From Fidelibacterota bacterium (GTDB taxonomy: Bacteria; Fidelibacterota; Marinisomatia; Marinisomatales; JABMOV01): a stretch of DNA of 33,158 nucleotides. The translations under genes and the position numbers were made by a program. The stretch is taken from assembly GCA_046861395.1 (NCBI GenBank), contig JBHHUC010000023.1, forward strand, positions 1-33,158. Reading direction: 5' to 3'. Below, piece after piece: positions 15,113 through 30,691 of this stretch; position 1 is the stretch's first letter, and every line of letters starts with the position of its first letter. The notes under the pieces were generated by a model. It was not told the DNA's origin and made no database searches. It saw nothing but the letters and a program-made list of their open reading frames with translations.

Positions 15113-15982
15113 TTGAAATACGTCCATAATATATTGTTACCACTTGCGGCACTGAGCCTTGTTGCCATAGTGTGGTGGATTTTGTTTGAAACGGGGAATT
15201 ATTATGAATTGCCCATTGGGGAAAGGCCCCATCACGCGGTGCATCGCGAATTTAGACCCGGGGGTGTGGTTGGCCATGGACTGGGCATCGCCGGTAGTAC
15301 CATGATTATTCTGTTGCTAGTCTATTCGGCCCGGAAACGAATCAAACGATTTCGTAAATGGGGAAAACTCTCAAACTGGTTGAACTACCATATTTTTCTC
15401 GGTATTGCCGGTCCCATTCTAGTTACCTTTCATACTTCATTCAAATTTAATGGAATTGTTTCCATCGCATACTGGTCCATGGTCGCAGTGGCTTTGAGTG
15501 GATTCATCGGGCGGTATATTTATGTGAAAATTCCACGACGGATCAGTGGTAATGAAATCACAGCCAGTGAGCTAAATCAGCAACAGGATGAACTAACCAA
15601 ACAACTGGTAGTCGAATATTCCCTTTCCGCTGAACAAATTGAAAAACTGGATTCCATTGCCCAAAGTGCTGAAATCAACCGCCGGGGACTGTTAGGTGTT
15701 TTTATTTATTTATACCTGGATACCATCGGACGGATTCCGTTACGGCAAAAAATGCATGGTTTGGCTAAGGAATTACACTTATCCCGAGGGCAGATTCATC
15801 ATTTTTACCAACTGTTACGAAAGAAAATCGCCTTATCGCGGCATATCGCTTTCTTAAGCAGTGCCCAGAAATTATTTCATTACTGGCATGTCATTCACCG
15901 GCCTTTTGCCTATACGATGATCGTTATCATGATTATTCACACTATTCTGGCCATTACGTTTGGCTATACCTGGATCTGGTAA
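15113..15982 (+). CDS. Inner-membrane protein, predicted di-heme cytochrome b (ferric-reductase-like His pattern)
   Basis: About five hydrophobic helices, with two intramembrane His pairs each 14 residues apart (H93/H107 and H262/H276). TTG start. Confidence 0.7.
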   Translation: MKYVHNILLPLAALSLVAIVWWILFETGNYYELPIGERPHHAVHREFRPGGVVGHGLGIAGSTMIILLLVYSARKRIKRFRKWGKLSNWLNYHIFLGIAGPILVTFHTSFKFNGIVSIAYWSMVAVALSGFIGRYIYVKIPRRISGNEITASELNQQQDELTKQLVVEYSLSAEQIEKLDSIAQSAEINRRGLLGVFIYLYLDTIGRIPLRQKMHGLAKELHLSRGQIHHFYQLLRKKIALSRHIAFLSSAQKLFHYWHVIHRPFAYTMIVIMIIHTILAITFGYTWIW

Positions 15983-15983
15983 T

Positions 15984-17297
15984 ATGAGTACTGAGTGGAT
16001 TTTTACCTGGATTCTGGGCGGAATCATTATCCTCTTTTTCCTGATTCCCTATATAACAAGGATGCGCAAGAGAGAAAAGCAGCATCGTTCCCGGTTGGCC
16101 GAAACACGGTCCAAGGGCCAGGACAAGGCATTGATGCAACACCCAATCATCAATCAATCCCTGTGTATCGGGTGTGGCATTTGCGTGGATTCCTGTCCCG
16201 AGGGCGACGTGCTGGGATTGATCAATGGAAAGGCGACTATTATTCATGGCAGCCACTGTATTGGACATGCCAAATGCGCCGAGGCTTGCCCTCTGGGTGC
16301 CATTGAAGTCGGTCTGGGAGATATCAGCCAGCGACAGGATATTCCGCGGCTGAATGAGTCCTATGAATCCAACATCCGAGGGTTGTACATCATTGGTGAA
16401 TTAAGTGGGATTGCTCTGATAAAGAATGCCATATCGCACGGTAGTATCGCCGTGGACGATATTGCCAAAAAGAAAACAGATCATTCATTTGACTATGACA
16501 TTGTCATTGTCGGTGCCGGGCCATCAGGATTGTCTGCCGGTTTACGAGCCAAAGAATTGGGATTGAAATTTGTTATTATTGATCAGGATGAACCCGGCGG
16601 GACGATCCTGCAGTACCCGCGGAAAAAACTGGTTCTGGTTCAGCCAGTGGCCCTGCCCTTGTATGGTACACTGAAAAAAATGGAATATTTCAAGGAAGAA
16701 CTCCTGGATATTTGGCTTGATGTGATTTCTCAGGAAAAATTACCACTGGAAACACACCAGAAATTGACAGGAGTACTTCCGGATGGCGAAGGGTTTATTG
16801 TCCAAACGAATAAATCAAGTTATAGAACGCAGTTTGTCATCCTGGCACTGGGTCGTCGCGGTACACCGCGAAAACTGGGTGTAAAGGGTGAAGAATTGAG
16901 CAAAGTAATGTATAAACTGCTGGATGCCGAAACCTATAAACATACCAAGGCCCTGATTGTCGGTGGGGGAGACAGTGCAATTGAGGCAGCCATGGGATTA
17001 TCCTATCAGGAAGGGAATGAAGTAACGATTTCATATCGTAAGGCAAACTTTTTCCGCTTAAAAGCCCGCAATGAAGAACGTCTGGGGAAAGCCATAGAAG
17101 AGGGACGACTCAATGTCCTGTTTGAAAGTAATGTGAAGGAGATCAAGGCAAAGGAAGTGCTGCTGGAAACAAAAGAAGGTTCCATAACACTCGCAAATGA
17201 TTATGTCTTCATTTTCGCCGGTGGTGAATTACCCTTCCCCTTACTGAATAGCATCGGAATCGATTATGGCCAGTCCATCCAACCGGGGGCAAAATGA
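15984..17297 (+). CDS. Membrane-anchored ferredoxin-domain FAD/NAD(P)H oxidoreductase (thioredoxin-reductase-like fold)
   Basis: N-terminal TM helix; Fe-S motifs CIGCGICVDSCP and CIGHAKCAEACP; FAD motif VGAGPSG; nucleotide motif VGGGDSA followed by SYRK. The ATG at 15984 lies 1 nt after the upstream stop. Confidence 0.88.
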   Translation: MSTEWIFTWILGGIIILFFLIPYITRMRKREKQHRSRLAETRSKGQDKALMQHPIINQSLCIGCGICVDSCPEGDVLGLINGKATIIHGSHCIGHAKCAEACPLGAIEVGLGDISQRQDIPRLNESYESNIRGLYIIGELSGIALIKNAISHGSIAVDDIAKKKTDHSFDYDIVIVGAGPSGLSAGLRAKELGLKFVIIDQDEPGGTILQYPRKKLVLVQPVALPLYGTLKKMEYFKEELLDIWLDVISQEKLPLETHQKLTGVLPDGEGFIVQTNKSSYRTQFVILALGRRGTPRKLGVKGEELSKVMYKLLDAETYKHTKALIVGGGDSAIEAAMGLSYQEGNEVTISYRKANFFRLKARNEERLGKAIEEGRLNVLFESNVKEIKAKEVLLETKEGSITLANDYVFIFAGGELPFPLLNSIGIDYGQSIQPGAK

Positions 17298-18922
17298 TTG
17301 TCCGTTATTTGTTTCTTCTGGTCATTCTCAGCCAGTTATTTGGACAATTCTCGCCAGGACCCTTATCAAAATATCATTCATTCCTGGAAGGGAATTCCAA
17401 TTGTACTCAATGTCATGAATTGCGACAAAAGAAATTGTCGTCAGGGTGCCAGGATTGTCATACGCCACTGAAGATCAAGCTGACGGAAAAAAAAGGGTAT
17501 CATGCTGACAAAAACAAGAATTGCGGCGAATGCCACTCCGATCATAATGGTAAGGATTTTGAGTTGGTATATTGGCCTAAGAATATTAAAAATTTTGATC
17601 ACAGTGAAACAGGGTATGACCTGACAGGAAAACATCGTGATTTGAAATGCAATAAGTGTCACAATGTGGACCTGATCAAAGGCCGGGACATCATCGATTG
17701 GGCTGCTAAATACTCCGACTATCCTATTCTGGACCGCACGTTCCTGGGGCTGGAAACGGCATGCGCTTCCTGCCACGTGGATGTACATCAAAAAGAAGTT
17801 TCCAATGATTGTGAATCCTGTCATACGACCGGTGACTGGAAACAGGTTGTCAAGGATTTTGATCATGAAAAAGCGAAATACAAGCTGACGGGAAAACATT
17901 TAACCACGGACTGCGTAAAATGCCACACAAAGCATGAAGACCGCGATCCTGCCGTGATGCAATTAACCGGCTTGCAATTTGAAAATTGTATTCCTTGTCA
18001 TGCTGATACCCATAAGGAAGAAGTTTCGGACAATTGTACAGCCTGTCATACGACCGAAGAATGGAAGGATGCCAGGAAATCATTTGATCACCAGAAAGCA
18101 AAGTTCAATCTGATCGGTGCCCACCTGACCGTTTCCTGCGAAAAATGTCACAAACCCCATACCGACTGGCCAAAACCGGTCATACAGCTTGCACCACTGA
18201 AATATGATCAGTGTACCGCCTGCCATGAAGACATTCACAAAGGGACGTTCGGAAATAGCTGTGAATCTTGTCACGAAATTCAAAAATGGAAAGAAAACTT
18301 AAAGCCCTTTGACCATGCCAAAACTAAGTATCCCCTGCTGGGAAAACATACCAGTGTAACGTGTAAACAGTGTCACGATGTTAAACTGGGTCAGCTTCCC
18401 AAGTATGATACCTGCATCCAATGTCATAAGGATGAGCATGACGGTCAGTTCACTCAGCGCAGCGATAAGGGTGATTGCGCCCGCTGTCATACAGTGAAGG
18501 GATTCAAACCTACCATTTTTTCGATCCAAAAACATCAATCGGCCCGGTTGGCCCTGGAAGGCACACACCTTGCGGTTCCCTGTATTCAATGCCATAAACC
18601 TTACCTGACTGCGACAGGAAAACAGACCGTGCAATTTACCTGGCCGGATCCCAAGTGTAATGTTTGCCATGATGATATCCATCGCAATCAATTCCGGGAG
18701 AATCATCAGAATGCTTGTGATACCTGTCATGGTTTCATTTCATTTACAGCTTTAGTCTTCGATCATCAAAATTCTGCTTTTCCGTTGGACGGAAAGCATA
18801 AAAAAGTAAAGTGTGGCAAATGCCACGAGAAGGAACTGGACGATGCAGGATCCTTTATACGGTATCGTCCACTGGCACATCGTTGTCAGGATTGTCACAC
18901 TTTCACCGGAGAAATTCGATAA
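17294..18922 (+). CDS. Secreted multiheme cytochrome c with 20 CxxCH motifs
   Basis: Signal peptide, then SPGPLS..H; 20 CxxCH motifs counted by hand; tri-heme repeats FDH..(T/A).(F/Y).L.G.H...CxxCH; Lys-rich. Confidence 0.95.
   Translation: MIVRYLFLLVILSQLFGQFSPGPLSKYHSFLEGNSNCTQCHELRQKKLSSGCQDCHTPLKIKLTEKKGYHADKNKNCGECHSDHNGKDFELVYWPKNIKNFDHSETGYDLTGKHRDLKCNKCHNVDLIKGRDIIDWAAKYSDYPILDRTFLGLETACASCHVDVHQKEVSNDCESCHTTGDWKQVVKDFDHEKAKYKLTGKHLTTDCVKCHTKHEDRDPAVMQLTGLQFENCIPCHADTHKEEVSDNCTACHTTEEWKDARKSFDHQKAKFNLIGAHLTVSCEKCHKPHTDWPKPVIQLAPLKYDQCTACHEDIHKGTFGNSCESCHEIQKWKENLKPFDHAKTKYPLLGKHTSVTCKQCHDVKLGQLPKYDTCIQCHKDEHDGQFTQRSDKGDCARCHTVKGFKPTIFSIQKHQSARLALEGTHLAVPCIQCHKPYLTATGKQTVQFTWPDPKCNVCHDDIHRNQFRENHQNACDTCHGFISFTALVFDHQNSAFPLDGKHKKVKCGKCHEKELDDAGSFIRYRPLAHRCQDCHTFTGEIR
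17762..18436 (+). repeat. Intragenic tri-heme tandem repeat with a 225-nt period
   Basis: Equivalent CxxCH motifs begin at 17762, 17987 and 18212. DNA similarity persists (GAAGTTTC...CCTGTCATACGACCG...TGGAA in the first two units). Confidence 0.8.
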
Positions 18923-18928
18923 AACATC

Positions 18929-21757
18929 ATGTGGAAGAGAATCGTTATCGGAATCAGAGAATCGGCCAATCTCATTCTGTTGGGTATTATGCTAACCAGT
19001 TTGGGTCTGGGGCAGGAACGATCTTTCAATGTTGCCGGATATGATTGCGGGGATTGTCATGGCGCTGCAGGCTGGGAAATCCTTACCCTTTCCGGATTTA
19101 ACCATGACTTTACCCAATTCCCGTTAACCGGAAGTCATAAGGTTCAGGATTGCTCTGCCTGCCATGAGGGGAATACAATCCAGGAGAAACACGATTTTGA
19201 GCAAGTAACCGCTACCTGTTCTTCCTGTCACATTGATGTACATCAACTTAATCTTGGGCAGGATTGCCAACGCTGTCATGAAACCAATTCCTGGCAGGTG
19301 ACTACGCTGTCTTTCGATCATGAACAAACTCAGTTTTCTCTCCTGGGGGCTCACCGCAACGTAGCCTGTGAACAATGTCATACCGATAAACCCATGATTG
19401 ACTTTACGTCGGTAACGCCGGATTGCTGGGGTTGTCATGAGGACAATTATATGGCCGTAGCGGAACCCTCCCATGCCCTGGCACAGTTTGATCATGACTG
19501 CTCCGTATGTCACCAGCCGCGCCGCCGGTCCTGGACGCCTTCCGATTTTGATCATAATGAATTTTTCGAGCTCACCGGTGCGCATAAACTGGCTCAAAAT
19601 GATTGTTTTAAGTGTCACGAAGGTGTTTTTACCGGTACCCCCCGTGATTGTCGTCCCTGCCATGAAGCACAGTTTGTCGCGACGGGAACCGAAGCTTACC
19701 CCAATGCACCGCGGCATACGGAATCAGATTATTTCGCCGAGCAATGCGAAACCTGTCATTCCACCGTCGATTGGCTTCCGGTTGATTTTAACCATGCTGA
19801 AACGGGATACGAATTAACCGGTCTCCATCTCGTTGCTACCTGCGATCAGTGTCACGGAACAGCCGGGTATGATCTTCCTCAGGATTGTCATGGCTGTCAT
19901 CAGCCACACGGTATCGCAACCACGTCAATTCTGGACGGAACCTATGATCACGTTACCCATTTGCTTCCCGCCGACTGCACCCTCTGTCATTCCACCATCG
20001 GCTGGGATCAGAATCATTTTGAACATAGTACGTTTACGGGAGAAACCTGTGAGGATTGTCATTTAATCGATCATGCCGAATCCACGAACCCACCACATGG
20101 AAACGATAATATCCGGACCGATTGTATTGCCTGTCATGAGCCTGGAAACGGGTGGGAAATTCCCGACTTCCCTCATGACGCCACCCAGACCGATTACGCT
20201 TTGATCGGTATGCATTTATTGGCCGATTGCGAATTGTGTCATCCCAACCAGGTGTATAATACCACACCGACCGATTGTCAGAATTCAATCTGTCATGCTA
20301 CCCAATATACCCAGACGTCCAGTCCCGATCATCAGCTTTACGGTTACCCGGATGTATACTGCGAACAATGCCATCTTCCCATGGGATGGATTCCTTCCAT
20401 TTTTACTCATCCGGCGGATATTACAACCATCGAAACCTGTTCAGCCTGTCACACGCAGGAATATCAGGCGACCACCAATCCGGTACATGATGCGTCTCAG
20501 GGCTTTACCACGGATTGTGCCATGTGCCACATCAGTACGGAAACCTGGTTGGGCGCGGAAATGGATCATTCCAAAGTCACAGCCCCCTGTGCCGACTGCC
20601 ACATTGATAATTATAACCAAGCGCAGAATCCCAACCATGTGGAAAAACAGTATCCCACGGTCTGTGATCAATGTCATTTATCTACGACTACATGGTATGA
20701 TGCTTTTGTGGACCATTCCAATTTTACCGGCTCCTGCTATGATGCCAGTTGTCATTATAATGATTATCACAGTACCACGGATCCCAATCATGTCGACAAC
20801 CAATTCCCCACGACGTGTGATGATTGCCATCTGACGACCAATACCTGGCGAATGGAAGCCTACACCCATCCGGATTTGGGTTTGGACTGTATTATTTGTC
20901 ACCAGACACAGTATGAAGTGTCCACTTATCCCAACCATACGGACAATAATTTCAGTCCAAATTGTCTAGTGTGTCACGAGTCCACTAACACGTGGTTAAT
21001 TACGACTTACCCCCATACCGAACAGGTCCCCTGTGCCGTATGTCATATCGAAGAATATAATAATACTACCGATCCCAATCATGCCGCAAACAATTATGAT
21101 TTGAATTGCATTCTTTGTCATGTGGATCCCAACGCGACCTGGGGTGATGCAGTATTTGATCATTCGACAATTACGGCACCGTGCTGGGATTGTCACTCCG
21201 GTGATTATTTGGGTGTAACAAACCCGGACCACGCCGGGAATAATTATGACCATGATTGTACACTTTGTCATAACGGTACTGTGGACTGGAACGATGTAAC
21301 GTTTGATCATACTAACATTACTTCCGGTTGTGTGGATTGCCATCTGGGAGATTACCAGGACGTATTGAATCCAGACCACGCTGCCCAGGGTTATCCCCAG
21401 GATTGTGAATTGTGTCATAACACGGTGGACTGGAACAATGATTTCTTCAGTCATGCTTTCCCAATATTTTCCGGAGAGCACGCAGGAGAATGGTCCACCT
21501 GTATTGCTGAATGTCATATCAATCCGCAGAATTTTCAGGAATTTTCCTGTGGTTTGAATGGCGTGTGCCATGAACATAACGCCAGCAAAATGAATAGTGA
21601 ACACCAGGGCGAATCGGGCTACGTCTATGAGAGCTGGGCCTGTTATGATTGTCATCCCAATGGGGATGAAGATGACGGAGACGGAGATGGAGACGACGGT
21701 GATCGCCGCCGTCCGCCCAAACATTGGTTTGAAATAATAAAAAAGAGAAGATTCTAA
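18929..21757 (+). CDS. Large secreted multiheme cytochrome c (31 CxxCH plus 4 non-canonical CXnCH)
   Basis: Signal-peptide-like N-terminus; 31 CxxCH motifs plus CQNSICH, CYDASCH, CIAECH and CGLNGVCH; acidic and Thr/Asn-rich. Confidence 0.95.
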   Translation: MWKRIVIGIRESANLILLGIMLTSLGLGQERSFNVAGYDCGDCHGAAGWEILTLSGFNHDFTQFPLTGSHKVQDCSACHEGNTIQEKHDFEQVTATCSSCHIDVHQLNLGQDCQRCHETNSWQVTTLSFDHEQTQFSLLGAHRNVACEQCHTDKPMIDFTSVTPDCWGCHEDNYMAVAEPSHALAQFDHDCSVCHQPRRRSWTPSDFDHNEFFELTGAHKLAQNDCFKCHEGVFTGTPRDCRPCHEAQFVATGTEAYPNAPRHTESDYFAEQCETCHSTVDWLPVDFNHAETGYELTGLHLVATCDQCHGTAGYDLPQDCHGCHQPHGIATTSILDGTYDHVTHLLPADCTLCHSTIGWDQNHFEHSTFTGETCEDCHLIDHAESTNPPHGNDNIRTDCIACHEPGNGWEIPDFPHDATQTDYALIGMHLLADCELCHPNQVYNTTPTDCQNSICHATQYTQTSSPDHQLYGYPDVYCEQCHLPMGWIPSIFTHPADITTIETCSACHTQEYQATTNPVHDASQGFTTDCAMCHISTETWLGAEMDHSKVTAPCADCHIDNYNQAQNPNHVEKQYPTVCDQCHLSTTTWYDAFVDHSNFTGSCYDASCHYNDYHSTTDPNHVDNQFPTTCDDCHLTTNTWRMEAYTHPDLGLDCIICHQTQYEVSTYPNHTDNNFSPNCLVCHESTNTWLITTYPHTEQVPCAVCHIEEYNNTTDPNHAANNYDLNCILCHVDPNATWGDAVFDHSTITAPCWDCHSGDYLGVTNPDHAGNNYDHDCTLCHNGTVDWNDVTFDHTNITSGCVDCHLGDYQDVLNPDHAAQGYPQDCELCHNTVDWNNDFFSHAFPIFSGEHAGEWSTCIAECHINPQNFQEFSCGLNGVCHEHNASKMNSEHQGESGYVYESWACYDCHPNGDEDDGDGDGDDGDRRRPPKHWFEIIKKRRF
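20438..21455 (+). repeat. Seven tandem degenerate di-heme repeats of about 40-43 aa
   Basis: Unit: CxxCH-x3-Y-x4-(N/D)P(N/D)H-x7/8-CxxCH-x4/6-W-x6-H. Confidence 0.85.
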
Positions 21758-22579
21758 ATGACACCGGGATTTTCATCCATCCTTATTCTCTTTCTATCAC
21801 TGCAGCAGTCACCCCTGGTGCTGGAAAAATATGATTGTCAGGATTGCCACACTCCGGACAGTTGGAGGCCGCTGGCATCTCAGCGGAAATTCGATCATGA
21901 TTTGACGGCATTTCCCCTGACAAACATACATTCCACCGCCAGTTGCATTCAATGTCACATTGGTGCGTCTGTAGAAGATCTTCATAATTTTGAAAATGCA
22001 GATACCCGGTGTTCCAGCTGTCACATGGATATCCATTATGAAGCCTATGGCAGCGATTGTCAACGTTGCCATGATACGAAATCATGGGATTTCCTAAACT
22101 GGCAGTTCAGCCACGATCAAACCCTGTTTCCCTTGGTCGGTAAACACAGCAATGTTTCCTGCAATAATTGCCACGGAGAAAATGCTCATTTTCGAATCCA
22201 GAATATGACGATAAACTGTCTGGTTTGTCACCGGGATGTTTTTATTGATCAGGTTGCTAATGCCGGACACACTAATAATGAGGACTGTTTTCTCTGCCAC
22301 AACACCCGGGCCTGGTTCCCAAGCGACATGTCTCATCATGATATATTTTTTCCCATATATACTGGCGAACATCGAGGCAAATGGAATGGTTGTAATACAG
22401 AATGTCATTATGATATAAATGACTATAAAGTATTTTCTTGCGGACTGGAAGGAGAGGGTGGCATTTCCTGTCATGCCCACCGCAAACGTAAAATGGAGGA
22501 TGAACATGATAACCGAAGTGGATATTCATACAATAGTAATAAGTGCTATGACTGTCATCCCAAAGGAAAAGAAGATTAA
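21758..22579 (+). CDS. Secreted multiheme cytochrome c (8 CxxCH plus 2 non-canonical), short paralog of the upstream gene
   Basis: Eight CxxCH motifs plus CNTECH and CGLEGEGGISCH. The N- and C-termini align by eye with those of the 942-aa cytochrome. Confidence 0.93.
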   Translation: MTPGFSSILILFLSLQQSPLVLEKYDCQDCHTPDSWRPLASQRKFDHDLTAFPLTNIHSTASCIQCHIGASVEDLHNFENADTRCSSCHMDIHYEAYGSDCQRCHDTKSWDFLNWQFSHDQTLFPLVGKHSNVSCNNCHGENAHFRIQNMTINCLVCHRDVFIDQVANAGHTNNEDCFLCHNTRAWFPSDMSHHDIFFPIYTGEHRGKWNGCNTECHYDINDYKVFSCGLEGEGGISCHAHRKRKMEDEHDNRSGYSYNSNKCYDCHPKGKED

Positions 22580-24118
22580 ATGAGAATGTATTTTCTATTA
22601 GTGGCATTAATGACTGGACTGCTGGCCCAAGACCGGGTCACGATTCAGGGAAAAATAACCTATCTTACGGTGGATCAAGTTTACAGCGATGTGGGACAGA
22701 TCGATCAAGTGGAAATCGGTGATACGTTAACCGTTCTGCGCAAAAATAAAGAAATCGGGAGAATCATTGTTACCAATCTGGCCAGCAAATCCAGCGTTTC
22801 TTCGTCCATCGTTCCTACCGAGACCTATCAACTGGGAGACCGTGTTTATCTCGTCAAACAAATGGAGAAGAAGCCGGAGACCGACGTTCAGGATACGACA
22901 GCAGCGGAAGAGGAAAGTGCCACCGAAAAAGTGGAAGAGACCAAAGTGAATCGATTTCGTCACAGCGGGAATTTCAGTCTGCGTTATTCCCATGTGACGT
23001 TCGATGCAGGTACAAATTCGGACCGCGGTGTTTCCACGCTGCAGTACAATTTGAGTTCGCTCGGCAGTTTTCCGCTCACAATCGCCCTGTACGGACGAGG
23101 TGATTTCATCTCGGGGAATTACGCCCTGTACCAGGCTCGTATTACCTTGGGTAACCGGTCCTCGCTGTTCAACGCTCAGATCGGTCGTGTCTTTTCTTCC
23201 GAATTATCCGGTATGGGTGCCACCGATGGTGTGATGGCCAGCATTCATCCCGGGGAAAACATCAGTGCCGGATTTGTCTTTGGGATGCAACCGGATCCCA
23301 TTTCCCTGACCTTCAACCGGGACATCAAGAAAATGGGTTTCTTCGGGAGAGTGCAAAAGAAGACCGGTCGATTGACGGTATTGGGACAAACAGCCGTTGT
23401 GGGGCAATATTCCCGGGGCAATGTAGATCGTGAATTTCTGGTGCTCAAAGGCGTCATTCGCGGACGGTCCGCGTGGAGCCTGCGGGCCAATGCCACCGTG
23501 GACTATTACCGCAAACAATATATTTCCACCCGCCAGTCGTCCGCCCTGACCAACGGTGAACTGTCCCTACGAATTCGTCCCCTGAAGAGTCTTACCATTT
23601 CATCGCGTTTATCGACCAACCGGCTCATCATTTACCGGGAATCAACTACATCATTTGTGGATTCACTGTTTCAGGACGAATTGCGATCGGGATTATTTAA
23701 TTCCATTACCTACCGCCACTCGGTCATTGGGAAATTTGGTCTGGGCTTTAATATGAGAACAGGGAGTACCGACCGACCGTCGCTGGTGGGACGCTTTTCC
23801 TATGGAACCGGATCTTATCTGCAGAAATCCTACGGTGATTTTGTCCTCATGTATATTCAAAATTTCCTGATAACCGGACTCCGGACGCAATTGGGCTGGG
23901 GCCGCGAAGTGGGTGAAAACGGACATCTCTATTTTCAGTATGAATATTATACCTACGGGTATGGGAAATTGCTGACGGGCTATACCCAACATACATTTTC
24001 CGGAAACCTGACCCACCGTTTTGGTAAACGCTTCATTCTGAATACGTCCATTGAATATAACAATGAAGCGGCATTTTCCATCCTCTATCTGTACGCCGGA
24101 GCAACCTACCGCTTTTAA
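22580..24118 (+). CDS. Outer-membrane beta-barrel protein (putative porin of a porin-cytochrome complex)
   Basis: Signal peptide, a small N-terminal domain and an acidic linker, then about 380 aa of alternating amphipathic strands. It ends in a BAM-type signal (LYAGATYRF) and has no Cys. Confidence 0.8.
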   Translation: MRMYFLLVALMTGLLAQDRVTIQGKITYLTVDQVYSDVGQIDQVEIGDTLTVLRKNKEIGRIIVTNLASKSSVSSSIVPTETYQLGDRVYLVKQMEKKPETDVQDTTAAEEESATEKVEETKVNRFRHSGNFSLRYSHVTFDAGTNSDRGVSTLQYNLSSLGSFPLTIALYGRGDFISGNYALYQARITLGNRSSLFNAQIGRVFSSELSGMGATDGVMASIHPGENISAGFVFGMQPDPISLTFNRDIKKMGFFGRVQKKTGRLTVLGQTAVVGQYSRGNVDREFLVLKGVIRGRSAWSLRANATVDYYRKQYISTRQSSALTNGELSLRIRPLKSLTISSRLSTNRLIIYRESTTSFVDSLFQDELRSGLFNSITYRHSVIGKFGLGFNMRTGSTDRPSLVGRFSYGTGSYLQKSYGDFVLMYIQNFLITGLRTQLGWGREVGENGHLYFQYEYYTYGYGKLLTGYTQHTFSGNLTHRFGKRFILNTSIEYNNEAAFSILYLYAGATYRF

Positions 24119-24130
24119 GGGATAGGCTTT

Positions 24131-24472
24131 TCAGCGGTTCATCAGTCCAAGATAGAACCCGCTGCCCAGGCCGTACAGAACAATATCCCAACCGTCGGAA
24201 GTAAAATGGGCGGAGTAGCGGGGCAGGATTCCTTCAAACACAAGGGCGAGAATGAATCCAATGCCAATGACGTGTGCTGTGGGTAGTATGAAGTCCCGTT
24301 TAATCACCAGTCGTTGGACTACCAGTATGATGGTGCCCAGGATGGGTACGGCGAACAGATCGTCGATATAGGGCGCAATCAGCGAAGGAACCAGCGCCGG
24401 TGTAAGATAATGAATCCCGACGACTATGATCATCCCTGAAAACAGAAGGATGGTTCGCCGGGGAAGAATCAT
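24131..24472 (-). CDS. Small integral membrane protein of unknown function
   Basis: About four hydrophobic segments with YIDDLFAVP, FEGILP and DGWDIVLYGLG motifs; convergent on the porin gene. Confidence 0.75.
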   Translation of the reverse strand: MILPRRTILLFSGMIIVVGIHYLTPALVPSLIAPYIDDLFAVPILGTIILVVQRLVIKRDFILPTAHVIGIGFILALVFEGILPRYSAHFTSDGWDIVLYGLGSGFYLGLMNR

Positions 24473-28254: not shown

Positions 28255-30114
28255 ATGAAGAAATATAGTATAGCATTGAACTTCCTGTTACCCCTACTGC
28301 TTTGGGGGCAGCTGGAAAACCCCATTAAAATTACAGCTTCCATTGATCATATTCCCCGGGGCGGTGAAATGGTCAGGTTCACTGTTGTGGCTGCTATGGA
28401 AGAAGAATGGCATATCTATTCCGTCCATGAAGTGGCGGACGGTCCCTTACCCACGGAAATTGCGGTAACTGGGGATGCCATCGATCAGGTAGGACGAGTC
28501 GTTGAGCCCGAACCGATCCGGAAATTCGACGAAGGATTCAACACTAAAACCAGTTTCCATGCCGGGACGACGGAATTCATGGTTCCGGTTCTATTAAAAC
28601 AGGGATTGCCACCCGGTGAAATAACATTCAATATCCGGTTCTTTTATCAGGTCTGTAATGCTTCACTATGCTATCCACCCAAGGAAATTATTCTACCGGT
28701 GAAAACCATCATTGAGCCTGGACAGGTTCGAGAGGAATACAGTGATTTTACGGCTATTCCGGCCGGACTTTCCGGGGATGAATTGCTTGATTCCACGATA
28801 CAGGCCGGCATCATTCCTTTCATCCTGTTATCTCTTACGATGGGATTTCTGGCCCTACTTACACCCTGTGTGTTTCCCATGATTCCCATTACAGTATCCT
28901 TTTTCACTCATCAGGGTGAAAAAAGCAAAAGCTCACCTGTCAGGCAGGCCAGTATCTATGCCCTGGGAATTATCATGACTTTCAGTGTTCTGGGAATTAT
29001 TCTGGCTATCTTTCTCGGCGCATCGGGAGCCAATCAGTTGGCTGCCAACCCATGGGTGAATCTTTTTCTGGGAAGTCTCTTTGTATACTTTGCTCTCTCA
29101 TTATTCGGGATGTATGAAATACAATTACCGGAAGGTCTGCGCCAGTTTACCTTAAAACGCGAATCCAAAGCTGGCTATGCCGGTATCTTATTCATGGCCT
29201 TTACTTTTACGCTGACTTCCTTTACCTGCACTGTTCAGTTTGTCGGTTTATTGTTGGTGGCCGCCGCAAAGGGAATGTGGTTCTGGCCGGCCCTGGGTAT
29301 GGTGGTTTTCAGTGCCGCTTTTGCCTTGCCATTTTTCTTTTTGGCGCTCTTTCCTCAGTACCTGGCCCGTATGCCCAAATCGGGAGGATGGCTTAATGCC
29401 GTAAAAGTTGTGATGGGATTTCTGGAATTAGCCGCGGCCTTCAAATTTTATAGTAACACAGATCTCGTTTGGTCCTGGAATATCTTTACGAATACTTCCG
29501 TTTTGGCTCTTTGGACTGTTATCATGTTTTTTACTGGAATATATTTATTGGGAAAACTGCGTTTGCCTCATGATTCTCCGGTAGAAACCGTTAGTGTGCC
29601 GCGAATGTTGTTGAGTTTGTTTTTCCTGACGTTCAGTTTATATCTGGGTTCGGGACTAATGGGACGGCCGATTCATGGTCTGATCTATTCATACCTGCCG
29701 CCGAAAATTGCAAAATCGGGAGAAGTCGTATCGGTCAATGACAGCGTGGCAGAAGATTTGCAATGGATGACATCCCTGGACGAAGGTTTTGCAATAGCGA
29801 GGGCAACGGGAAAACCAATTTTCGTCGATTTTACCGGCTATACGTGTACCAATTGCCGCTGGATGGAATCCAATATGTTCACAGATCAACGAGTAAAAAA
29901 TTTATTCCAGCACTATGTTCTAGTTCAGTTATATACTGATGGGGGTGAAGGGTATCAGGAAAATCAGAAATATGAAATTGACCGGTTTGGTACGGCGGCG
30001 TTACCCTATTATGTCCTGTTGAGTCCGGAGGATGAAGTTTTAGGCGAATTTCCCGGAATGACACGCGATTTTAATCAATTTATCACATTCTTAAAGAAAG
30101 GTCTGGAAGGATAA
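28255..30114 (+). CDS. dsbD: Thiol:disulfide interchange protein DsbD (three-domain)
   Basis: N-terminal domain with QVCNASLCYPP, TM domain with LTPCVFPMIP and FTCT, PKSGGWL, and a C-terminal thioredoxin domain with DFTGYTCTNCRWME. Confidence 0.92.
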   Translation: MKKYSIALNFLLPLLLWGQLENPIKITASIDHIPRGGEMVRFTVVAAMEEEWHIYSVHEVADGPLPTEIAVTGDAIDQVGRVVEPEPIRKFDEGFNTKTSFHAGTTEFMVPVLLKQGLPPGEITFNIRFFYQVCNASLCYPPKEIILPVKTIIEPGQVREEYSDFTAIPAGLSGDELLDSTIQAGIIPFILLSLTMGFLALLTPCVFPMIPITVSFFTHQGEKSKSSPVRQASIYALGIIMTFSVLGIILAIFLGASGANQLAANPWVNLFLGSLFVYFALSLFGMYEIQLPEGLRQFTLKRESKAGYAGILFMAFTFTLTSFTCTVQFVGLLLVAAAKGMWFWPALGMVVFSAAFALPFFFLALFPQYLARMPKSGGWLNAVKVVMGFLELAAAFKFYSNTDLVWSWNIFTNTSVLALWTVIMFFTGIYLLGKLRLPHDSPVETVSVPRMLLSLFFLTFSLYLGSGLMGRPIHGLIYSYLPPKIAKSGEVVSVNDSVAEDLQWMTSLDEGFAIARATGKPIFVDFTGYTCTNCRWMESNMFTDQRVKNLFQHYVLVQLYTDGGEGYQENQKYEIDRFGTAALPYYVLLSPEDEVLGEFPGMTRDFNQFITFLKKGLEG

Positions 30115-30118
30115 ACAA

Positions 30119-30691
30119 ATGAAGAAAATCCAGTACTTAACTATACTCTTATTATTTATCGCTCTGATGGGCTGTGAGGCGCAGGGAAATACACCGGCCG
30201 GAAAATCACAATCCACACAACAGGCTAAGGAAATGCAACAGAAGACCGGGAAGATCATGGCCCCGGATTTCACCCTGGCCGATGTCAACGGGGAATGGGT
30301 TTCTCTTTCCGACTTCAAGGGAAAGGTCGTTCTATTGAATTTCTGGGGAACCTGGTGTGCGCCTTGTCGTCGGGAAATTCCTGATTTTATTAAATTATAT
30401 GATAAATACAATGGTGACGGTCTTGAAATAGTCGGGATTACACTTTCGTCAGGGTCGGCGGAAGATATTGCCCGCTTCATGGCGGATTGGAACATGAACT
30501 ACACAATTCTGACCGATATCAAGGGGAATGAAACACAGATTGTTACACAGAATTACGGTCAGGCCACCGGTCGTCCCATCAATGGTATTCCCACCACATT
30601 TATCATTAATCGACAGGGTGAAATCGTTAAAGCCTATGTTGGCCCCCGTACCGAGGAAATCTTTTACAATGATTTAAAACCCTATCTATAA
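30119..30691 (+). CDS. TlpA/ResA-family disulfide reductase lipoprotein
   Basis: APDFTL, LLNFWGTWCAPCRREIP and GIPTTFII motifs; lipobox-like LMGC. Confidence 0.92.
   Translation: MKKIQYLTILLLFIALMGCEAQGNTPAGKSQSTQQAKEMQQKTGKIMAPDFTLADVNGEWVSLSDFKGKVVLLNFWGTWCAPCRREIPDFIKLYDKYNGDGLEIVGITLSSGSAEDIARFMADWNMNYTILTDIKGNETQIVTQNYGQATGRPINGIPTTFIINRQGEIVKAYVGPRTEEIFYNDLKPYL

Follow-up and report, generated by a model that had tools for sequence, protein, structure and literature searches.

A PCC3-type porin–cytochrome operon of a Fidelibacterota bacterium with a ferredoxin–flavoprotein as candidate fifth component

Described porin–cytochrome systems and the operon

Cytochromes that cross the outer membrane in a barrel are the common principle of MtrCAB (Shewanella) and Pcc/Ext (Geobacter); in MtrCAB and Pcc, entry is quinol-linked via CymA, ImcH or CbcL, and the outer cytochromes are lipoproteins. 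A further type, PCC3, was defined as a porin, an extracellular cytochrome, a periplasmic cytochrome and an inner-membrane protein (IMP) of about 300 aa (He, Barco, Emerson & Roden, 2017, PMC5566968; statements on this and the other papers cited here refer to the accessible parts of their text and supplements). In that definition, the IMP has five helices, two WX3HX13H motifs and an SGXXG motif and was proposed to exchange electrons with quinone, while the periplasmic cytochrome has about 21 hemes and the second one 10–85 hemes (median 34). PCC3 is common in iron oxidisers, where Sideroxydans ES-1 offers two examples (Slit_0867–0870 and Slit_1446–1449), and several papers list it as a candidate quinone-linked iron oxidase; in later papers it is still composed of four genes and functionally untested (10.1101/2025.02.27.639646, PMC9900912, PMC8788666, PMC12016527, PMC13386937). 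Here we describe an operon at positions 15113–24118 of a 33 158-nucleotide stretch from a Fidelibacterota bacterium (contig JBHHUC010000023.1, assembly GCA_046861395.1; hereafter the window), whose core resembles PCC3 and which contains, in addition, a ferredoxin–flavoprotein. We computed its anatomy and motifs, the folds of two of its products, their co-inheritance and fusions, and a charge-based topology.

The operon consists of six genes on the plus strand, named A to F: A (15113..15982) encodes a PCC3-type IMP of 289 aa, B (15984..17297) the ferredoxin–flavoprotein, C (17294..18922) a 20-heme cytochrome c, D (18929..21757) a 35-heme repeat cytochrome, E (21758..22579) a 10-heme cytochrome and F (22580..24118) a predicted outer-membrane beta-barrel of 512 aa. 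The open reading frame (ORF) of B can be read from a TTG at 15960, and the ATG at 15984, which gives 437 aa, is the more likely start. The spacing between A and B is −23 nt with the TTG or +1 nt with the ATG, and that of B/C, C/D, D/E and E/F is −4, 6, 0 and 0 nt, respectively. CxxCH motifs number 20 in C, 31 in D and 8 in E, 59 in total, and with the extra CXnCH motifs, four in D (CX4CH twice, CX3CH and CX5CH) and two in E (CX3CH and CX9CH), the three proteins reach 20, 35 and 10 heme motifs, 65 in all. These motifs use up every Cys of C, D and E, and the 44, 80 and 23 His of the three proteins are enough for bis-His ligation. ORF positions and motif counts agree with an earlier reading made from the sequence alone (the sequence-only reading), which had described six co-oriented, tightly packed genes with 65 heme motifs. 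The operon is not a chance arrangement, since orthologues at 61–73% identity keep the order in relatives; its GC content is close to that of the flanking DNA, and the named database matches of A and F are proteins of Marinimicrobia, Fidelibacterota and the FCB group. Scanning the window against Rfam gave no match, and promoter and terminator scans of it remained at chance level.

We compared the operon with proteobacterial loci found via homologues of A, which carry an IMP, a cytochrome of 21–27 hemes, another of 11–69 hemes and a TPR-bearing porin. A was 25–31% identical to their IMPs, C 28–34% to the cytochrome beside the IMP (21, 24 and 27 hemes) and D 22–30% to the second cytochrome. For the barrel, where these loci were used and not the accessions of PMC5566968, the alignment of F with nine PCC3 porins was weak (hhalign probability 44.8, E 2e-4), and a hidden Markov model of the F family matched one PCC3 porin at 1e-10 in an 11-sequence set, suggesting that F is, weakly, a distant homologue of the proteobacterial PCC3 porins. 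Judged by these similarities, the operon core (A, C, D and weakly F) is a PCC3 homologue, and the operon is hence a PCC3 variant. It resembles PCC3 in the size and motifs of the IMP, the periplasmic-type cytochrome of about 20 hemes, the large repeat cytochrome, the low number of residues per heme and the large barrel, and differs from it in the presence of B, the third cytochrome E, the shorter barrel (without TPR) and the non-proteobacterial host. With respect to the sequence-only reading, the unit is not undescribed, four of its six gene types being those of a PCC3 cluster (PMC5566968), and it is not fully self-contained, the sole CcmF homologue found being on host contig C19. What appears to be new is B as an overlooked fifth component, while the PCC3 core had already been described.

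No paper was found that names a B-type flavoprotein as a component of PCC3, in a search mainly over openly accessible text that left the figures of PMC5566968 aside; the words 'pyridine' and 'thioredoxin' are absent from the accessible main text of that paper. It does mention 'other redox-active proteins', and in its Supplementary Table 6 an 'other redox protein' of 412–805 aa, given without a name, stands beside the IMPs of porin-less clusters. These porin-less IMP–cytochrome clusters and PCC4 have the same IMP motifs as A, and PCC4 has periplasmic cytochromes of 4, 5 and 10 hemes, unlike the operon (PMC5566968).

The ferredoxin–flavoprotein and its association with the inner-membrane protein

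B contains one N-terminal transmembrane (TM) segment, a Fer4 domain and a Pyr_redox_3 domain (Pfam, NCBIfam), in agreement with the TM-anchored Fe–S/FAD/NAD(P)H oxidoreductase that had been proposed from the sequence. In 42 sequences of the family, Lys and Arg flanking the TM averaged 6.2 after it and 0.3 before it; since a basic stretch follows the TM, the rest of B is predicted to be cytoplasmic, the side to which the flavoprotein had been assigned. The ferredoxin part is of the 2[4Fe-4S] type, with a His replacing one Cys of the second cluster (H95 in 41/42) and a variable second Cys in the other motif (14/42). Residues ~168–433 superpose on residues ~2–270 of Bdr, thioredoxin reductase (TrxR) and ferredoxin–NADP+ reductase (FNR) in PDB and fold matches (for Bdr, Z 22.6, root-mean-square deviation [rmsd] 2.8, 262 aligned). 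From the end of B, the final ~50 residues of this fold are missing, and a weak match to them lies upstream, at residues ~121–165, which argues that B is circularly permuted; residues 118–165 gave one weak match in the PDB, to the C-terminus of a TrxR (E 0.26), and no useful match among the host's own ORFs. B keeps GGGDSA, and the NADPH-type R352 and R358 are present in all 42 sequences; from this motif analogy we take NADPH to be its preferred substrate.

The best sequence and structure matches of B are TrxR-type FNR and Bdr (YpdA), which have the same FAD/NADPH fold without a redox CxxC; B differs from them by its circular permutation, its membrane anchor and a ferredoxin domain of its own. 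CxxC was found in none of the 42 family sequences and none of 21 proteobacterial ones. Taken together, B looks like a membrane-anchored FNR with its own ferredoxin and not like a disulfide reductase. Assignment to thioredoxin reductase was rejected on the missing redox-active CxxC, and assignment to YpdA/Bdr on the TIGR04018 score (161.1, cut-off 339.9).

The association of B with the IMP was followed in relatives, in whole genomes and in metagenomes, and the three agree with the claim that the flavoprotein/cytochrome b pair is conserved beside the cytochromes and the barrel. A full B orthologue was present in 15 of 40 relatives and adjoined A in each of the 15; the 13 relative loci that are complete through F all have the same order, and 12 of them include E. 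Across 276 genomes of the phylum, the IMP occurred in 69 and B in 66, every B-positive genome being IMP-positive, and in the three IMP-positive genomes without B the loci are cut by contig ends. The IMP is rarer in the Proteobacteria (5/401, 17/301 and 19/61 genomes in three samples), and there B was found in all 38 IMP-positive genomes and in none of 42 taken from the listed IMP-negative ones, a count in which four of the 38 had fed the IMP profile and one the B profile, and in which related genomes are not independent. B lay within 1 kb of the IMP in 26 of these 38 genomes, within 3 kb in 32 and within 10 kb in 35, and was mostly divergent from it. Among the best 80 of at least 562 metagenomic IMP loci, B was present in 43, and all 37 loci without it have less than 8 kb downstream; where at least 8 kb was available, B, a cytochrome and F were found in 13/13, and B was found in 21/21 loci with F. 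B stands before the IMP, after it or after F, and with its place so variable, the electron path cannot be read from gene order. The inside-to-outside order that had been read into the operon holds only roughly, the cytoplasmic enzyme being second, and is not conserved across loci.

B is also frequently fused to the IMP. Among 120 listed long B homologues, 62 were fusions with the IMP (61 B–IMP and one IMP–B), 31 had the arrangement B–hydrophobic linker–cytochrome and five the arrangement cytochrome–TM–B, and each of the 36 cytochrome fusions has a hydrophobic segment between B and the hemes. Another 21 carry different C-terminal parts, of which one matched the F family and 20 matched neither barrel profile. 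About 20 long homologues (P0195–P0212 and similar, several from Myxococcota) have long proline-rich, often TPR-bearing C-terminal extensions, which likewise fit neither barrel profile. The 31 fusions of B with 13–37-heme cytochromes (e.g. P0121, P0125 and P0155) suggest polyproteins cut by signal peptidase. An apparent B–IMP–cytochrome triple fusion (P0127) was discounted, its second His motif looking frameshifted.

B is encoded beside named PCC3-type genes as well. On plasmid pEMTOL02 of Emticicia oligotrophica DSM 17448, a heterotroph of the Bacteroidota, ccsA, the IMP, B, cytochromes of 23 and 40 hemes and F follow one another, the IMP and B pair being EMTOL_RS21090/21095. In ES-1, the gene adjoining the type cluster Slit_0867–0870 is Slit_0866, a 430-aa FAD pyridine nucleotide-disulfide oxidoreductase (PMC12016527, supplement). 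It was detected as a protein, and its five peptides match segments of the B family, to which it belongs on this sequence evidence; the accessible main text of PMC12016527 does not mention it.

In five relative loci an extra FNR-type NAD-binding gene stands inside the operon, between B and the first cytochrome (L019:11659–12525, L022:5339–6157, L024:11654–12511, L047 and L048:12215–13081); PF00175 was matched in the three scanned, and one of these genes also matches the ferric-reductase NAD-binding family. It is possible that they provide a second input or a flavin supply.

The inner-membrane protein, the cytochromes, the barrel and their surroundings

A carries W-x3-H-x13-H at residues 89–107 and 258–276 and SGxxG at 129–133, in line with its earlier description as a di-heme-b-like membrane protein. 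It shows five hydropathy peaks and, between TM4 and TM5, an insert of about 120 aa on the cytoplasmic side; the charge bias of A places the N-terminus inside and the C-terminus outside. The candidate ligands H93, H107, H262 and H276 are invariant in 88/88 family members, and we infer that A binds two b hemes; since helices 3 and 5 both run from inside to outside by the charge bias, H93/H262 would hold the inner and H107/H276 the outer heme. NOX likewise has one His pair at the inner face and one at the outer. Three further His are nearly invariant (H55 in 85/88, H256 in 86/88 and H259 in 87/88). Weak Pfam matches at E≤0.05 among the 88 members were to DUF4405 (60), Ferric_reduct (35) and Ni_hydr_CYTB (22); A itself scored 14.7 bits against Ferric_reduct, below the cut-off of 28, and a sequence search with the IMP profile found no solved relative.

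A shares with the NOX/FRD proteins the paired H-x13-H that, on helices 3 and 5, would ligate two b hemes. That superfamily, which includes MsrQ, moves electrons of cytoplasmic NAD(P)H through the membrane to acceptors outside, and the donor may be a separate polypeptide. A differs from its members in having five helices and, as proposed donor, a ferredoxin with a permuted TrxR-type flavoprotein instead of an FNR-fold domain; the anchor of B could, by analogy, stand in for the sixth helix. The proposed acceptor of the operon is a cytochrome wire, while those of NOX/FRD are O2, chelated iron or MsrP. Classification as a true NOX was rejected: A ends after helix 5, its partner has the TrxR fold, and an FNR-type gene is added in only five relative loci. 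A prediction of the A+B complex with hemes and Fe–S clusters included gave a score of 0.01 and a mark of 0.32, in a run in which the controls did not fold.

C has a cleavable signal peptide and 27 aa per heme, and from the signal peptide it is predicted to be periplasmic; a sequence search found no solved relative of it. Orthologues of D in relatives have 20–40 CxxCH. E shares the N- and C-terminal blocks of D (tblastn, 40% and 34% over the two ends), and most loci of other groups have a single D/E-type gene, so that E, on sequence comparison, is a short D paralogue added in this lineage. D ends (window 21640–21757) in acidic residues and then a basic tail with Trp; most close orthologues have tails of this kind. 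In three relatives, cytochromes with Por sorting domains of the type IX secretion system lie just upstream of the operon (L020:2–664, L021:3–2513 and L024:14905–15897) and are candidate secreted end partners.

AlphaFold2 predicted F as a 22-strand barrel (pLDDT 77.9, pTM 0.59) with a small N-terminal beta domain and a C-terminal Phe, in keeping with the claim that the last gene models as a barrel. Its best fold matches were the FimD usher and 22-strand TonB receptors (Z 17.2, rmsd 4.1, 369 aligned); MtrB was not among the 50 matches listed in either fold search, and Pfam and NCBIfam scans of F gave no match. Membership in MtrCAB was rejected on the absence of an MtrB match for F in Pfam and NCBIfam and on the scores of TIGR03508 (decaheme DmsE/MtrA), which at 59.9 and 22.9 are below the cut-off of 192.2. 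At locus L031 the porin is a 775-aa TPR gene, and a 942-aa gene encodes an ankyrin protein.

Downstream of the operon, a 113-aa small hydrophobic ORF (24131–24472, minus strand) converges on it and gave no match in a Pfam scan, and a DsbD gene with a thioredoxin-like gene (28255–30691) lies 4 kb away in housekeeping surroundings. A scan of genome contigs with B alone found a single locus. The host has further multiheme clusters on contigs C39, C71, C88 and C8 (L126, L128, L127 and L133), and its other multiheme clusters contain no IMP or B homologue. One combines a 17-heme gene of the NapC/NirT type with genes for 7 and 11 hemes, a 389-aa gene that has no annotation and a MerR regulator. In another, NrfD/Fe–S genes accompany a 10-heme gene; a third has NHL repeats and cytochromes with paired CXXCH, and in the last a cytochrome b adjoins a 9-heme gene. 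The host also encodes heme-copper oxidases and a transhydrogenase subunit.

Proposed electron path, alternatives and implications

We propose that the operon encodes a PCC3-type conduit across the envelope and that a split unit resembling NADPH oxidase forms its inner end and exports electrons of NADPH, with quinone not obligatory, a reading that we consider about evenly balanced between right and wrong. B would oxidise cytoplasmic NADPH at its FAD and, via its Fe–S clusters, supply single electrons to A at the inner b heme; these would cross the membrane to the outer heme, the 20-heme C would span the periplasm, and D and/or E would hand them through or beside F to an acceptor outside. This acceptor could be a metal oxide, humics, another cell or a chelated metal that is taken up once reduced. 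Quinone would not be an obligatory intermediate. Such a system would act as a valve for reductant or provide a reductive service; it would draw on the membrane potential without adding to it and would not form an energy-conserving respiratory loop. Cofactor binding, the A–B and A–C contacts, the direction, the quinone bypass and the external partner are the deduced parts of this scheme. Outward flow appears likelier, since from NADPH it runs downhill and, as in NOX, the membrane potential favours it; co-inheritance with the IMP and frequent B–IMP fusion fit B as an obligatory partner. MsrQ, of the same membrane superfamily as A, may serve as an analogous precedent for a separate cytoplasmic donor, being fed by a cytosolic NADH reductase and binding a ubiquinone that is not its donor (PMC12525009).

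Several observations weigh against the proposed path. The linkers of the B–cytochrome fusions resemble internal signal peptides, so these fusions show topology and not binding, and the IMP and B trees agree only in part (69 loci, patristic r 0.72; 22/31 and 25/36 supported splits shared). The modelled N-terminal domain of F aligns with the plug regions of TonB receptors and might fill the lumen, and D and E, putatively exposed at the surface, have no lipoprotein signal Cys. The second PCC3 cluster of ES-1, Slit_1446–1449, is the better detected one and is flanked by an HD hydrolase (Slit_1445) and an aldolase (Slit_1450), not by B. In late samples, Slit_0866 was more abundant with magnetite than with Fe(II)-citrate (log2 +2.35, q 0.018, and +2.55, q 0.003, from only five peptides; PMC12016527), and the PCC3_2 IMP of CL21 was up when cells could oxidise iron, both of which fit uptake as well. 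Finally, the host encodes MenB and so can make menaquinone; the futalosine-pathway marker PF02621 was not found in its 94%-complete genome.

In a second reading, A is a quinone-active cytochrome b through which the wire exchanges electrons with the menaquinone pool, and B would connect NADPH to the same hemes or to quinone as a side branch. A quinone-active IMP is the original model of PCC3 (PMC5566968), and this reading agrees with the MenB and UbiA-family genes of the host, with the ubiquinone bound by MsrQ, with the weak matches of 22/88 IMP members to the cytochrome b561 family of quinone-reactive hydrogenase subunits and with the ES-1 cluster that has no adjacent B. However, B occurs in every IMP-positive genome whose locus is not truncated at a contig end, 62/120 long homologues of B are fusions with the IMP, and the quinone of MsrQ is not its donor; we regard this reading as rather unlikely. 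The host has separate conventional quinone-linked cytochrome entries (NapC/NirT, NrfD and cytochrome-b types), and since quinone routes exist elsewhere in it, quinone independence of the operon is put forward as a hypothesis.

Alternatively, electrons from solid or low-potential external donors might flow inwards, B reducing NADP+ for biosynthesis. TrxR-type FNRs normally run from ferredoxin to NADP+, PCC3 is common in iron oxidisers, and the magnetite response of Slit_0866 and that of the CL21 IMP are of the kind expected. For Fe(II)-type donors, however, the path to NADP+ is uphill in both redox and membrane potential, and the full operon is found on the plasmid of the heterotroph E. oligotrophica; moreover, in ES-1 transcript levels of the PCC3 clusters fell with Fe(II)-citrate relative to thiosulfate (PMC8788666), and the cytochromes of Slit_0867–0870 were largely undetected in proteomics. 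The expression data from iron oxidisers point both ways, to export and to uptake, and on balance we find inward flow improbable. A role in maintenance, in which A and B send reductant to the periplasm for heme attachment or cytochrome upkeep and F exports or anchors D, seems more improbable still: the Emticicia plasmid has ccsA immediately before the operon, cytochrome c biogenesis homologues occur in five more loci (L040, L081, L092, L147 and L153) and the DsbD and thioredoxin-like genes lie downstream in the window, but biogenesis genes were seen in only those few of about 120 loci screened (many of them short), the same C-family cytochrome follows the IMP across phyla, and the host's other multiheme clusters do without an IMP or B homologue.

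Extending the proposal of NADPH export to PCC3 at large, we consider it plausible, if slightly less than an even prospect, that PCC3 across Proteobacteria, Marinisomatota, Bacteroidota and others is a five-component, NADPH-oxidase-like machine that connects cytoplasmic NADPH to the exterior via the permuted ferredoxin–flavoprotein and a two-heme membrane protein, bypasses quinones and exports reductant, and is not the iron oxidase that it is commonly scored as in genomes of iron oxidisers. A constant NADPH-type partner changes the PCC3 hypothesis and makes PCC3 testable, and a compact NADPH-to-electrode module would be on offer. If true, PCC3 would form a class of its own among the extracellular electron transfer systems of Gram-negative bacteria, one exporting cytoplasmic reductant without the respiratory chain, which would alter how it is read in iron oxidisers and in a quarter of the sampled Marinisomatota genomes.

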